From Octopus vulgaris (Eukaryota), in assembly GCA_951406725.2 (NCBI GenBank), contig OX597814.1:18786001-18850000 (forward strand): a DNA stretch of 64,000 nucleotides, given 5' to 3'. Below, piece by piece: positions 6,427-62,725 of this stretch; the first letter of the stretch is position 1; every line of letters starts with the position of its first letter. The notes beneath the pieces are model-generated. The model worked only from the letters and a program-made list of their open reading frames with translations, ran no database searches and was not told where the DNA came from. The position numbers were made by a program, and so were the translations under genes.

Positions 6427-6914
6427 ACGCATGCACAAATACGCCCACACACACACACACACAAATACGCACACACACACACACATATACCAAACTATTA
6501 CAAAGAATACGGAGACTGGTGCATATTCATATTTATCTTTTCATTTAGCAATTTGTCATACTGCATAATGAGTTAGTAAAAATGACCGATACGCTTTTCT
6601 GCTGCACATTGTATGTGCATTTGTGTATGCAGCCAAGCATATTCTGCTATGCACTTCATTCATGTTCTTTCTACAAGCGTGGTTCGAAGCATATATGGTG
6701 CTGCTGTAGTTACGTCTCTGTAACTTAGCGGTTCGGCAAAAGAAACCGATAGCTACCGACCACACAGCCGCTCCTGCGCCTATATACAAGCATAGTGTAC
6801 CTGCACACCAATGTCCGGGGATAACACGGATAACGGATACCGATAGTATATAGAGATATTTTATCCATTAGTCGGTTATTACAACCGCTAACTCTGTTTA
6901 CACTATATATATTC

Positions 6915-7457
6915 ATGAATAAAAAAAATGGAAGAGGAACGTAACGGAAGACAATGAAAACATACGGGCAGATGGACGATAAAGGACAGACAGGAAAACC
7001 AGGACGAACATTCGTGGCTCTGTATTCATCAATCAAGCTTCCAATTATCACTACAGTTTCGGCCTGTTACACTTGAGACTGTTCAAAATTGGTAGGCCCC
7101 AAGAATCTAAGCTAAGGACATTAAATTTTTGGAAGAAAGTGGGCGAATATGAGCAACGACACGGACAAAAAAAATTAGAAAACGGGGAAAACGTTACATG
7201 ATCACAAATATAGACAACAAGAATAACAACAGGTGTCTTTCGACTAAAAGGGCGAGTTAAGCTGGCGTGAGAAGTGAAGGCCTTACGGCAACAAATATAG
7301 ATGAAAGTTAGGAGACAGGAAAATAGGTGTTGTGAGAGCGGCAGTCAAGCCAAGAAAGAAAGCTCATGCTTGGCCGAACACCGGTCATATGGGAGAAACA
7401 GAGAAAGGTAGAGAGCAGAGGGATTGAAGAATTAGGGAAAGAAACTAGAGAGAGACT

Positions 7458-7496
<39 letters not shown>

Positions 7497-7851
7497 TACA
7501 AGCGAGACAACAGAGGAAAGTAGAGAGATTAAAGAAAAAGAATGACAAGAAATGTGACAGGGGGAGCGAGAAAAGGAAAATGGAAAGAAAGAGAATGCCA
7601 TGAAAGTGAGAGAGGGGGAGCGAGTAAAAGAAAGTCGTACATAATTTAGATATATACTAACTAGCTGAGCAAACGGTATACGTACGCTGCTATATGTATA
7701 TTTTTTTTAAAATCGGAACAAAAACGTAACGGACAACAATAAAAACATACTGGCTAATGGAAGATACAAAGATGGACAGGAAAATCAGGACTGAACATTT
7801 GTGTCTTTCTATTCATCAGTCAAGCTTCCAATTATCACTACAGTTTCGACC
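6915..7851 (-). mobile_element. ~787-bp-unit retrozyme/Penelope-like element (about 1.2 units) carrying a strand-swapped hammerhead
   Basis: Diverged direct repeats ~6915-7063 and ~7705-7851; homologous to 61664-62721 (ttccaa..taatg..cttagatt upstream of the motif). Confidence 0.6.
7014..7082 (-). ncRNA. Strand-swapped hammerhead-like motif, family 1 (C3U in this copy)
   Basis: Minus strand ACAGU-C-UCAAG-uguaacaggcc-GAA-ACUGU-15nt-CUUGA-UUGAUGA. Stem III ACAGU/ACUGU, stem I UCAAG/CUUGA. Truncated second copy (7803-7851) has intact CUGAUGA. Confidence 0.55.
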
Positions 7852-8034: not shown

Positions 8035-9311
<1,277 letters not shown>

Positions 9312-27400: not shown

Positions 27401-27893
27401 GGCGAATAACCAAGTGGTTAGTCATCTGAGCTTATTAGCTGCTCCGCGGGAATCGACGTTACTACTGTTTTTAACTCCTGCAGGAGCCTCCTCTAACTGG
27501 TTATTGATGCAATTTGCACGTTATATGTATTGCAAGCAGAGGAGCGAACCCCCACCATCTTCTAGCAGACGACGGGATCTCCGGACCGTACGGTTTCGAT
27601 CTCTTTGTGCCCATCCTCAGTGGTGGGTTTTATTGTTGGTGATTTTTGTTTTGTGTTTTAATCCTCCACTTAATATCAAATGGGCTCAGGATGACCTGAG
27701 TCATAACGAAGGTGGGCATCCTGAGAACTAATCCGATTTACTTTGATAATGTCTACATTATGAAATGAGTCCTTCTTATATGAAACAGAAGAATGATATT
27801 TACGTGAAATCTTTTTTGCTGCTATTTCTAGGAAAACGAATTAATGTGTTGAGGGTCCACATTGCACATTTGCTTTCTCTATATACCTAAATT

Positions 27894-30331: not shown

Positions 30332-30517
30332 AATAAAATATATGCATATATATAAACATATATGTACGTACCTACCTCTACATGTACATATACACGCATA
30401 TATGTGTACAGGACACCAAAAGGACGTCGAACACATAGAGAGACGAAAAACATAGACACAAACCAAGGAACAAGACAAGCAAAAAAAGGAGATACAGGAC
30501 AATAAGCACAACGAAAA

Positions 30518-30580
30518 ATCCCCTTCTTCAGTCGCTAAAGTTTCATCTACTAAACGTTTCAAAGGATAAAAGCGAGACGT
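30518..30580 (-). ncRNA. Strand-swapped (pseudoknotted) hammerhead candidate, family 2, copy 1
   Basis: ACGU-C-UCGCU-uuu-AUCCUUU-GAA-ACGU-17nt-AGCGA-CUGAAGA-AGGGGAU: intact core, GUC site, all three stems pair. Confidence 0.75.
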
Positions 30581-31349
30581 ATACTTCGAATGAAAAATTC
30601 CTTCCTGCGAAAAGCAAATCAATTAAAATTCTGAGATCTTGTCGCAGAGGGGTAAAAAAAGCAAGACGGTAACGACAGTACAAACATATAAACAGTAAAA
30701 AATATATATATAAACAGTGGAAAAATAAATATATAACAGTGAGAGACAGGACAAGGAGAACAAGATAAGAAGGGCTGTTAACGCCAGACGAAAAAAGTAT
30801 TGCAAACGCTGGATTATAGTGGACGACGAGAGAGGAAGATGTCGACCAGTGGCCTTAGAAGGCAGGTGAGAAAAGACGGGATAGCAGTTACGACGGAAGT
30901 TCGTCGCAGATGGACGACGGGAATGGGGGAGAAGGAGCAAGAGGAAGAGAGAGAAGAAGGGGAATGGTGCGAGGAGACCATGAAGAACAGTAGGGGGAGA
31001 GAGAGAGGAAGAGACAAGTTAAGTGAGGGAAAAAAGACGAGAAAGGGAATGGGAGAGAAAGAAAGAAAGATGCAGAGTCGCGTGAGAGTTAATATCAAGG
31101 CGAACTTGATAAACAGAACAATCTTACTTAATAGGGTGCGTGCGTTTAGTCGTATAATATGTTAATAAAATATATGCATATATATAAACATATATGTACG
31201 TACCTACCTCTACATGTACATATACACGCATATATGTGTACAGGACACCAAAAGGACGTCGAACACATAGAGAGACGAAAAACATAGACACAAACCAAGG
31301 AACAAGACAAGCAAAAAAAGGAGATACAGGACAATAAGCACAACGAAAA

Positions 31350-31412
31350 ATCCCCTTCTTCAGTCGCTAAAGTTTCATCTACTAAACGTTTCAAAGGATA
31401 AAAGCGAGACGT
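31350..31412 (-). ncRNA. Strand-swapped hammerhead candidate, family 2, copy 2
   Basis: Identical to 30518-30580. Confidence 0.75.
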
Positions 31413-32181
31413 ATACTTCGAATGAAAAATTCCTTCCTGCGAAAAGCAAATCAATTAAAATTCTGAGATCTTGTCGCAGAGGGGTAAAAAAAGCAAGACG
31501 GTAACGACAGTACAAACATATAAACAGTAAAAAATATATATATAAACAGTGGAAAAATAAATATATAACAGTGAGAGACAGGACAAGGAGAACAAGATAA
31601 GAAGGGCTGTTAACGCCAGACGAAAAAAGTATTGCAAACGCTGGATTATAGTGGACGACGAGAGAGGAAGATGTCGACCAGTGGCCTTAGAAGGCAGGTG
31701 AGAAAAGACGGGATAGCAGTTACGACGGAAGTTCGTCGCAGATGGACGACGGGAATGGGGGAGAAGGAGCAAGAGGAAGAGAGAGAAGAAGGGGAATGGT
31801 GCGAGGAGACCATGAAGAACAGTAGGGGGAGAGAGAGAGGAAGAGACAAGTTAAGTGAGGGAAAAAAGACGAGAAAGGGAATGGGAGAGAAAGAAAGAAA
31901 GATGCAGAGTCGCGTGAGAGTTAATATCAAGGCGAACTTGATAAACAGAACAATCTTACTTAATAGGGTGCGTGCGTTTAGTCGTATAATATGTTAATAA
32001 AATATATGCATATATATAAACATATATGTACGTACCTACCTCTACATGTACATATACACGCATATATGTGTACAGGACACCAAAAGGACGTCGAACACAT
32101 AGAGAGACGAAAAACATAGACACAAACCAAGGAACAAGACAAGCAAAAAAAGGAGATACAGGACAATAAGCACAACGAAAA

Positions 32182-32244
32182 ATCCCCTTCTTCAGTCGCT
32201 AAAGTTTCATCTACTAAACGTTTCAAAGGATAAAAGCGAGACGT
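32182..32244 (-). ncRNA. Strand-swapped hammerhead candidate, family 2, copy 3
   Basis: Identical to 30518-30580. Confidence 0.75.
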
Positions 32245-32908
32245 ATACTTCGAATGAAAAATTCCTTCCTGCGAAAAGCAAATCAATTAAAATTCTGAGA
32301 TCTTGTCGCAGAGGGGTAAAAAAAGCAAGACGGTAACGACAGTACAAACATATAAACAGTAAAAAATATATATATAAACAGTGGAAAAATAAATATATAA
32401 CAGTGAGAGACAGGACAAGGAGAACAAGATAAGAAGGGCTGTTAACGCCAGACGAAAAAAGTATTGCAAACGCTGGATTATAGTGGACGACGAGAGAGGA
32501 AGATGTCGACCAGTGGCCTTAGAAGGCAGGTGAGAAAAGACGGGATAGCAGTTACGACGGAAGTTCGTCGCAGATGGACGACGGGAATGGGGGAGAAGGA
32601 GCAAGAGGAAGAGAGAGAAGAAGGGGAATGGTGCGAGGAGACCATGAAGAACAGTAGGGGGAGAGAGAGAGGAAGAGACAAGTTAAGTGAGGGAAAAAAG
32701 ACGAGAAAGGGAATGGGAGAGAAAGAAAGAAAGATGCAGAGTCGCGTGAGAGTTAATATCAAGGCGAACTTGATAAACAGAACAATCTTACTTAATAGGG
32801 TGCGTGCGTTTAGTCGTATAATATGTTAATAAAATATATGCATATATATAAACATATATGTACGTACCTACCTCTACATGTACATATACACGCATATATG
32901 TGTACAGG

Positions 32909-61358: not shown

Positions 61359-61785
61359 ACATGTGTGTCTGTGTATGTATGTATACAGATATTTATATAG
61401 ATATATTTATGAAAGAGAGATGACAAAGGAATACTTGATTATCCTATGAACTTCATTTTTCTGTAGCTGTTTCTGTTCTAAGATGCAGTATCTGTGTAAC
61501 ATCTTACAGCTTCATGGGAGCCTCGAATATGACGTATAGTTACATTCCTACATACATCATATCACATACTAGCATTAAATTTCTAAACACACACACACAT
61601 GCGTACACAGACAGTCAGGTGTCAGGCAATTATGCAAACAGACAGACAGACAGACAAATATATATATATTTTTGTTCGTGTACTTCGTTCGTTTTCCGTC
61701 CTCGTGTTGTATACATTCGAAGCTTTCTTCCAAGGGATCTAATGCACTTGGCTTAGATTTCCCGTGGCGGGCTGCCCATATCGGA

Positions 61786-61851
61786 GCAATCTCAAGATTA
61801 ATCAGCCGAAATTGCTAAGATGATCTGGTTCTTGACTGATGACTGAGGGCT
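61786..61851 (+). ncRNA. Strand-swapped hammerhead candidate, family 3, copy 1
   Basis: GCAAU-C-UCAAGA-uua-AUCAGCC-GAA-AUUGC-14nt-UCUUGA-CUGAUGA-cugag-GGCU. Confidence 0.65.
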
Positions 61852-62564
61852 TCGAATGTCCCGTCCTGTGGTTCTTGTGTCGTCTCTGTGGCGTTTCATG
61901 TTCTTGTCCATGTCTGTAATTATTTTTACTGTTTACCTATATAATCGGCGGCTACGTATCCACAATTGTCCTTATACGATAAGTATATTTTTTTCTCAAG
62001 CATTGATACGACTCTTAATCTTTCTTTCTCTCTCTCTCTCCTCCCTTATTCCCCCTCCTTTCTTTCCCTCTCCATCCGTTTCCCCCCCCTTCTACGTTTC
62101 TCTATCTCTCTCACCTCCAGCCCCCTCGATCTGTCTCTTTCTTCTCCTCCCTCGTCCACCTTCTCTCTCTTTTCATCTGTCCCTTTCTCTTGTATTTTGT
62201 TCTCACGTGACCGCTGACCGCTGTTGAGCGCTCTTTTCGTTCCAGCAGCCGTTGAAGCAACACGTACTTGTTCGTCTCCCTGTGGCCATTAGGCACAACT
62301 TCATAAGCCAGCCCCATGCTCAATTCGTCCTGTCGAAAGACCCTTGTCCTACGTCCTGGTTTTGTTTTGTTGTTTATTTTTTATACTTTATTTTTACCGT
62401 TATTGTTTTTACGTTTTTGTATTCTTATTGTTGTCACGTATTCTGTATTTTTGTTCGTGTACTTCGTTCGTTTTCCGTCCTCGTGTTGTATACATTCGAA
62501 GCTTTCTTCCAGGGGATCTAATGCACTTGGCTTAGATTTCCCGTGGCGGGCTGCCCATATCGGA

Positions 62565-62630
62565 GCAATCTCAAGATTAATCAGCCGAAATTGCTAAGAT
62601 GATCTGGTTCTTGACTGATGACTGAGGGCT
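62565..62630 (+). ncRNA. Strand-swapped hammerhead candidate, family 3, copy 2
   Basis: Identical to 61786-61851. Confidence 0.65.
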
Positions 62631-62725
62631 TCGAATGTCCCATCCTGTGGTTCTTGTGTCGTCTCTGTGGCGTTTCATGTTCTTGTCCATGTCTGTAATT
62701 ATTTTTACTGTTTACCTATATATAT

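Follow-up and report, generated by a model that had tools for sequence, protein, structure and literature searches.

A likely non-circularly permuted hammerhead with a split core, now decayed, in a non-coding Penelope-like element of Octopus vulgaris

Introduction

Hammerhead ribozymes with the block order A-C-B were described by Eckert et al. in 2023 as type SGC, a non-circular permutation of the motif (PMC10085705). In the portions of that report that deal with this type, type-SGC RNAs cleave at 0.007–0.19 per minute, monomeric RNAs do so in cis, a stem I–II interaction helix is essential, and a strand of helix II is assumed to lie within one or two bases after CUGANGA. The hammerheads of Penelope-like elements (PLEs) commonly carry single extra bases at A9/G10.1 (Cervera and de la Peña 2014; PMC4209133), and animal retrozymes are presented as PLE derivatives with type I hammerheads in a preprint by Li et al. 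(2026; 10.64898/2026.07.22.740005), the accessible portion of which mentions neither SGC nor octopus. The Naiad PLEs were described by Craig et al. in 2021 as TA-targeting, 5′-truncated elements with partial tandems and without canonical hammerheads, some of them bearing ‘HHR_core’ or ‘half_core’ marks, with Naiad_Ovul and Naiad_Esco among those marked as half cores, in the part of the report available to us (PMC8557442). Our literature search, which included the available portions of PMC2777235, PMC13725137, PMC10162972, PMC3088659 and PMC6155905, found no permuted hammerheads in animals or Naiads, no break at A9/G10.1 and no natural kink-turn in helix III; precedent for extra helices is possible, and Weinberg 2015 (PMC4509812) is the reference given elsewhere for hammerheads that carry further helices. 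Searched by terms, the supplement of Eckert et al. returned no octopus, coral, nematode or kink.

Here, we consider a motif in a 64,000-nt stretch of the Octopus vulgaris genome (assembly GCA_951406725.2, contig OX597814.1, positions 18,786,001 to 18,850,000), which we call the window and whose own numbering we use. A sequence-only reading of this DNA had proposed a permuted A-C-B hammerhead, which corresponds to the type-SGC order, although it had given neither that name nor the setting among Naiad/Penelope-like elements, nor the two additional helices and the kink-turn-like loop described below. From comparison of the motif with its relatives, we consider it likely to be a decayed, non-circularly permuted hammerhead with a core split between A9 and G10.1, the probable self-cleaving RNA of a non-coding Penelope-like element that is probably derived from Naiads.

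Results

A damaged motif in a 5′-truncated insertion

The motif lies on the minus strand in a non-coding retroelement insertion at 6913–7851, which comprises ~1.2 units of 787 bp, is 5′-truncated at 7851 and has no real ORF in its unit. Its 3′ end is fixed at ~6913, with a brief run of TA after it, on the basis that alignments with sister copies stop at 6895–6927 and have variable 5′ ends. The 3′ 356 nt of this copy show a mean identity of 84.5% to 29 sisters.

All segments that had been listed from the letters alone are present at 7082–7026, with the same 16/25-nt spacing: ACAGU (7082–7078), C (7077), UCAAG (7076–7072), 11 nt, GAAA (7060–7057), ACUGU (7057–7053), 15 nt, CUUGA (7037–7033) and UUGAUGA (7032–7026). 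The motif reaches farther upstream than these coordinates, to 7141. Read 5′ to 3′ on the minus strand, it begins with the upstream strand of a capping helix (7133–7141; GCUUUCU in the family, with one change here), whose partner is the strand that comes after the core, followed by a hairpin that separates the capping helix from helix II (7099–7132), the 5′ strand of helix II (GGCCU, 7094–7098), whose first base is G10.1 and which lies 5′ of the cut site, and the 5′ strand of a distal helix with the first GA of the kink-turn-like loop (CCAAUU plus GA, 7083–7092). Block S (7072–7082) contains the helix III strand ACAGU, the predicted cut 3′ of C7077 and the helix I strand UCAAG. After a 6-nt linker come block G (7053–7065), with the helix II 3′ strand AGGCC, GAAA and the helix III strand ACUGU; a 3-nt bulge, the second GA and the distal-helix 3′ strand AAUUGG (7041–7052); the helix I strand CUUGA with the core heptamer (7026–7037), which reads UUGAUGA (C3U) in place of CUGAUGA; and the capping-helix strand after the core (7016–7025), with two changes relative to the family's commonest letters. 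The block order is established by sequence and covariation, the cut site is placed by analogy with the hammerhead, and helices I, II and III cross one another.

Position 3 is C in 27/28 family copies and U only in the 7082–7026 copy, in agreement with the earlier view of C3U as damage. Pairing U3 against G8 is expected to make cleavage much slower. The natural substitute for C3–G8 is U3–A8 (PMC4209133). With U3 opposite G8 and a weakened capping helix, this copy is likely to cleave very slowly or not at all. The repeat 787 bp away (7803–7851, minus strand) has, as reported earlier, an intact CUGAUGA (7819–7813) together with GAAA; it begins at 7851, lacks the cleavage block (block S) and the upstream strands, and is incomplete on its own. 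Both the C3U copy and this truncated neighbour are likely dead.

Rfam gives no hammerhead match at E up to 10 within 6880–7300; on the whole window, microsatellite-driven miRNA-type matches were set aside among the matches listed (150/379). With nested folding, the energies do not beat those of shuffles (z 0.78, −0.76 and −0.41), the outcome to be expected with crossing helices, and no helix but helix II is recovered besides the hairpin (z 0.78).

Position of helix II

The sequence-only reading had placed a possible helix II on a strand 7 nt after CUGAUGA. We find instead that it is formed by the five bases before GAAA and a strand 19–20 nt upstream of the cut site/U16.1. This pairing is kept across subfamilies (labels assigned within this analysis), with GGCCU/AGGCC in the 7082–7026 copy and GGCUG/CAGCC, GGCCG/CGGCC, GGGCA/UGCCC, GGACA/UGUCC and GACAC/GUGUC elsewhere. 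Across 105 copies from 9 subfamilies, after 15/120 had been dropped as truncated or oddly spaced, the upstream register gives Watson–Crick pairs at 44/45 positions when the commonest letters of the nine subfamilies are taken and in 458/525 cells when all copies are, three to four pair types occur at positions 3–5, and G10.1–C11.1 is present in 9/9 subfamilies in this register only. By comparison, the displaced downstream strand reaches 24/45 Watson–Crick pairs and the strand adjacent to the core 10/45, with an A·C at 10.1–11.1 in 5/9 subfamilies in the downstream register, and both were rejected. The GUC/GAC helix II proposed earlier is confined to the 7.8-kb copy; in the family, GGCC stands before GAAA and AGCC at the displaced position.

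The pairing is also kept in genomic copies when covariation is computed. When 32 copies, selected from five subfamilies with columns lining up, are aligned with MAFFT, helices I–III are paired in 95.6% of cells, with both-side changes at 6/15 pairs. This percentage is reached by 0/500 shuffles (slid controls 16–39%), a comparison that, like the re-dealing p of 6.6e-5, overstates independence because the subfamilies are related. The displaced downstream helix II is paired in 61.6% of cells on the same alignment, versus 61.5% in shuffles. The distinct pair types imply at least 8 double changes in helix II and at least 6 in helix III, which occurs in at least five distinct pairing sequences, consistent with the selection on helix III structure suggested earlier. 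Helix I is nearly invariant within the family (p 0.11), its sequence having been fixed in the search patterns, and its variation is restricted to differences among families and to a small number of variants.

A family-blind scan for helix II, run over 1.54 Mb enriched for these loci, finds the upstream partner better in 94/107 distinct hits and the downstream partner better in 12, with 0 hits in reversed sequence; the best partner lies at offset −20 or −19 in 69/76 strong cases. One pair switches between G–C and A–U within subfamilies C–F, with 65 G–C, 18 A–U, 10 A·C and 7 G·U by eye count among the 100 listed of 290 matches, and 21, 3, 4 and 2, respectively, by script at 30 loci; the flip is probably one inherited event.

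Block C, uninterrupted in type SGC, is interrupted here (10/45 Watson–Crick pairs adjacent to the core versus 44/45 upstream), and the predicted catalytic core is broken between A9 and G10.1. Because this break departs from the rule of an uninterrupted block C, as given in the relevant part of PMC10085705, activity is not guaranteed.

Distal helix, helix III loop and capping helix

Helix III leads through the 3-nt bulge and GA/GA into the distal helix. The kink-turn consensus consists of a helix, a 3-nt bulge, tandem G·A/A·G pairs and a second helix. In the octopus motif, the two GA dinucleotides stand at fixed places in 99/105 and 96/105 copies while the bulge letters vary, and the kink-turn sequence pattern is found in the family, with family X fitting less clearly; by this pattern, the helix III loop would be kink-turn-like. 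Through the distal helix, the strand 3′ of helix II is connected to the one 5′ of helix I; its mean energies are −3.3 to −9.0 kcal/mol per subfamily, and A, B, C, Naiad and X each have a sequence of their own there that nonetheless pairs. A downstream interaction helix, AAGGAY/GUCCUU, was set aside once the upstream distal helix was seen. Together, the distal helix and the split helix II would make the molecule a circle of SGC/CSG type with its opening at the step from A9 to G10.1.

The strand after CUGANGA pairs farther upstream to form the capping helix, with a hairpin between its partner and the helix II strand. Cognate strands give −8.9 kcal/mol versus −7.4 kcal/mol for non-cognate ones, and this helix is the less well supported claim, as only one B copy passed the anchor.

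Copy number and family-blind scans

The strict pattern TCTCAAG-N10-12-GAAA-N16-24-CTTGACTGATGA, searched by exact matching over the 2.8-Gb genome (227 contigs), gives 1,091 matches versus 0 in the reversed control, so the motif is not a product of chance; a variant of the pattern gives 713 genome matches, and viral contigs contain 0 matches to the pattern. A family-blind descriptor applied to 664 kb, made up of the window and 600 kb of stretches sampled at even spacing, returns 8 hits in SGC order, 11 of type I and 1 of type III, with 0 in reversed sequence. Five of the SGC-order hits are in the window and three in the 600-kb sample, where one is probably due to chance. CUGANGA, GAAA and the UH site are intact in 102/105 family copies, which were found via core-bearing patterns, and the change rate in B copies, themselves picked by core patterns, is 1.4% in the core versus 5.9% in the linkers.

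The genome has roughly one type I hammerhead-like motif in every 60 kb. In several of them helix II carries a long insert, and they are found in the random stretches L033, L042, L046, L049, L058, L066, L072 and L080. Within the window, other repeats contain ordinary-order (type I-like) cores at 27620 (−), which has a palindromic helix III loop, 15286 (−) and 60852 (+).

Non-coding units and Naiads

The octopus motifs lie near the 3′ end of ~780–830-bp non-coding, tandem, TA-targeted units. These lack an ORF, end at a fixed 3′ position, are 5′-truncated, form partial tandems arranged head to tail and have one hammerhead each, which is the anatomy of a non-autonomous Penelope-like element or non-LTR retrozyme. 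Their genomic 3′ ends fall ~165 nt past the predicted cut and are followed by TA repeats in 22/34 B copies and 21/25 A copies versus a background of 16%. The TA ending is not specific to Naiads, as TA repeats likewise follow the copies of a young canonical PLE family.

Naiad_Obim and Naiad_Ovul show, at their 3′ ends, the same split architecture and the same −20 register as the units. A Naiad-type motif with this architecture and register has 318 genome matches, and a published Octopus Naiad end has an exact match in the genome. Among 30 Naiad RT loci with 1.5-kb flanks, the RT matching RVT_1 below the curated cut-off, the motif lies 1.1–1.4 kb downstream of the RT in three. Reading by eye the last 260–350 nt of 53 Naiad consensus sequences in the supplement of PMC8557442, we observe the split form in six (three Acropora, two Octopus and, with mismatches, Euprymna), fully paired type-CSG ends in six nematode Naiads, and partial motifs with GAAA before the core in about five (spider, three ostracod and ctenophore), with helix II unclear by eye in the spider and ostracod ones; nothing was found by eye in these ends of the remaining Naiads, including those of bivalves and hemichordates.

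Outside the motif, blastn gives no match between the units and the Naiad 3′ region. The Naiad copies seen in the genome are decayed, a Naiad RT piece matched none of the unit-bearing loci, 50 RT-bearing loci contain only scattered unit fragments, and a young intact PLE family with RT and C-terminal GIY-YIG has no match to the units. This canonical Penelope-like family (L257–L266, e.g., L257:3294–5552, −) has a 753-aa frame with both domains and copies that are mostly 96–99% identical, with inverted 5′ pieces; its 3′ end contains no standard hammerhead, only a degenerate look-alike that begins with CUGAAGA. It is a candidate enzyme for the young units.

Sister families and neighbors

The kinship with the family at 61.7 kb, proposed in the sequence-only reading, is upheld. 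That locus is a young copy of subfamily A with two intact motifs 779 bp apart (61720–62640, +; cores at 61836 and 62615), the repeat being 99.2% identical. Subfamily A (window 61690–62720, +) has an AUC site and accounts for the majority of the 100 matches listed for the strict pattern. Family X, with the same layout, has three intact motifs in 832-bp units at 30500–32310 (−; cores at 30531, 31363 and 32195), and the compared pair of units is 100% identical and thus very recent. Unit similarity across subfamilies is only 63–70%.

Family X can form helix II both upstream and directly after the core, possibly as a switch, or as a stage that lies between SGC and the split layout. A further subfamily at L240:3110–3210 (−) has UCAGA/UCUGA in helix I and GCGGAU/AUCUGC in helix III; at the level of sequence, its changes in helix I are compensatory. 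Close to the element under study is a 3′ piece of a non-LTR retrotransposon (window 8210–9160, −) with zf-RVT and an apparent restriction-like endonuclease motif, whose end is a TAA tail ~80 bp from the element.

Discussion

The pairing evidence argues for a split-core hammerhead that probably served as the self-cleaving RNA of its element. It is unlikely that a hammerhead-derived fold has instead been retained for a role other than cleavage, as a 3′-end signal for a PLE protein or a kink-turn target of the 15.5K/L7Ae family. Such a role would suit the position near the 3′ end, the conserved kink-turn pattern, genomic 3′ ends that lie ~165 nt beyond the predicted cut and not at it, and the spread of most Naiads without a recognized hammerhead, whereas the features kept across subfamilies that are only 63–70% alike are CUGANGA, GAAA, U16.1–A15.1, an H17 that is not G, and G10.1–C11.1, with N7 free to vary, a pattern that catalysis would predict. 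Also improbable, and decidedly so, is a ribozyme in which two tandem units act together as a dimer with swapped strands, in place of a triple-crossed single unit. Tandem arrays are common, PLE hammerheads often need dimers (PMC4209133), and nested folding predicts just the hairpin and helix II (z 0.78), but every helix has at least 5 bp, there is no palindromic loop III, Naiad_Ovul lacks a pLTR and contains the motif just once, and type-SGC RNAs act in cis as monomers (PMC10085705). Finally, we give very little credence to an ordinary three-block type-SGC hammerhead with helix II formed by a strand 5–7 nt after, or directly after, CUGAUGA: some subfamilies do pair downstream (B2 5/5, A 4/5 and Naiad 5/5 with three G–U), 7 pairs are possible directly after the core in family X of the window, and the displaced-helix covariation score is reached by only 4/500 shuffles, but the downstream registers reach only 24/45 and 10/45 against 44/45 Watson–Crick pairs upstream, with A·C at 10.1–11.1 in 5/9 subfamilies and pairing at the shuffle level (61.6% versus 61.5%), and X variants also have an upstream GAAGG that pairs with CCUUC and gives a proper G10.1–C11.1.

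In the split-core hammerhead that we prefer, the kink-turn-like loop would bend helix III back so that the distal helix could replace the stem I–II interaction helix of type SGC, while the capping helix and hairpin would bulge out at the A9/G10.1 step. Single extra bases are tolerated at A9/G10.1 in PLE hammerheads, which makes a bulged-out domain there plausible. A tandem transcript would be cut once per unit, 3′ of sites equivalent to C7077, and the four helices that join the ends would favor closure of a circle of ~787 nt. A Penelope-like RT/GIY-YIG enzyme may then copy the circle at TA-repeat sites, starting at a constant position ~165 nt beyond the cut, with more than one copying round giving head-to-tail arrays of 1.2 to 3 units, along the lines of the copying scheme proposed for PLE hammerheads (PMC4209133).

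On balance, we lean towards the broader view that Naiads, whose proteins are themselves permuted, use non-circularly permuted hammerheads across animals, with intact CSG in nematodes and a four-block, A9/G10.1-split, kink-turn-closed and possibly 15.5K-gated form in corals and cephalopods. If true, octopus genomes would contain active-type copies by the thousand within young retrozymes, non-circularly permuted hammerheads would go from a few hundred metagenomic sequences to high-copy animal genomes, and a host element would be supplied for permuted hammerheads, with the ‘half-core’ marks of Naiads explained. The family would then record how a non-circular permutation acquires a new opening point, and would provide a topology beyond the six permutations thought possible, in which the A9–G10.1 bond is dispensable, along with a natural kink-turn within a hammerhead. 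As standard descriptors and Rfam miss the split motif, counts of invertebrate ribozymes are probably too low. Young intact copies are at hand in the window, in subfamily A at 61.7 kb (99.2%) and family X at 30.5–32.2 kb (100%).

Comparison with known systems

Among the circularly permuted orders of the type I–III hammerheads in Rfam, the S-G-C order of the octopus motif is not found. The closest system is type SGC (HRIMA-1 and variants), with which the motif shares the order of site, GAAA and CUGANGA, the crossing helices I–III, a short linker between helices I and II, and a helix that joins the distal sides of I and II. It differs in that the 5′ strand of helix II is severed from the core and placed upstream, a capping helix and hairpin stand at A9/G10.1, the interaction helix is fused to helix III via the kink-turn-like loop, and the linker is 6 nt versus ~3 in type SGC. 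Type SGC is also known from metatranscriptome and metagenome sequences, whereas the octopus motif resides in high-copy animal retroelements. Type CSG, represented by two sequences in the part of PMC10085705 that covers it, shares the reversed cyclic order, and the octopus motif, once its ends were joined, would become CSG with an insert, although CSG itself has block C intact.

The hammerheads found in PLEs and in non-LTR retrozymes, as far as described in the available parts of PMC4209133 and 10.64898/2026.07.22.740005, resemble the octopus motif in lying near the 3′ end of tandem, 5′-truncated units, in their association with non-coding PLE derivatives and in the common extra base between 9 and 10.1. 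They are, however, of type I and often have a minimal palindromic helix III that requires dimers, whereas the octopus motif is non-circular with long helices. Naiad PLEs share TA targeting, 5′ truncation and partial tandems with the octopus units, and the Naiad_Obim and Naiad_Ovul ends share the architecture of the motif; unlike a Naiad, the octopus unit has no ORF and no detectable homology outside the motif. Taken together, the octopus motif would work like type SGC but lacks one of its defining features, and it is thus best regarded as a putative variant of the hammerhead class.
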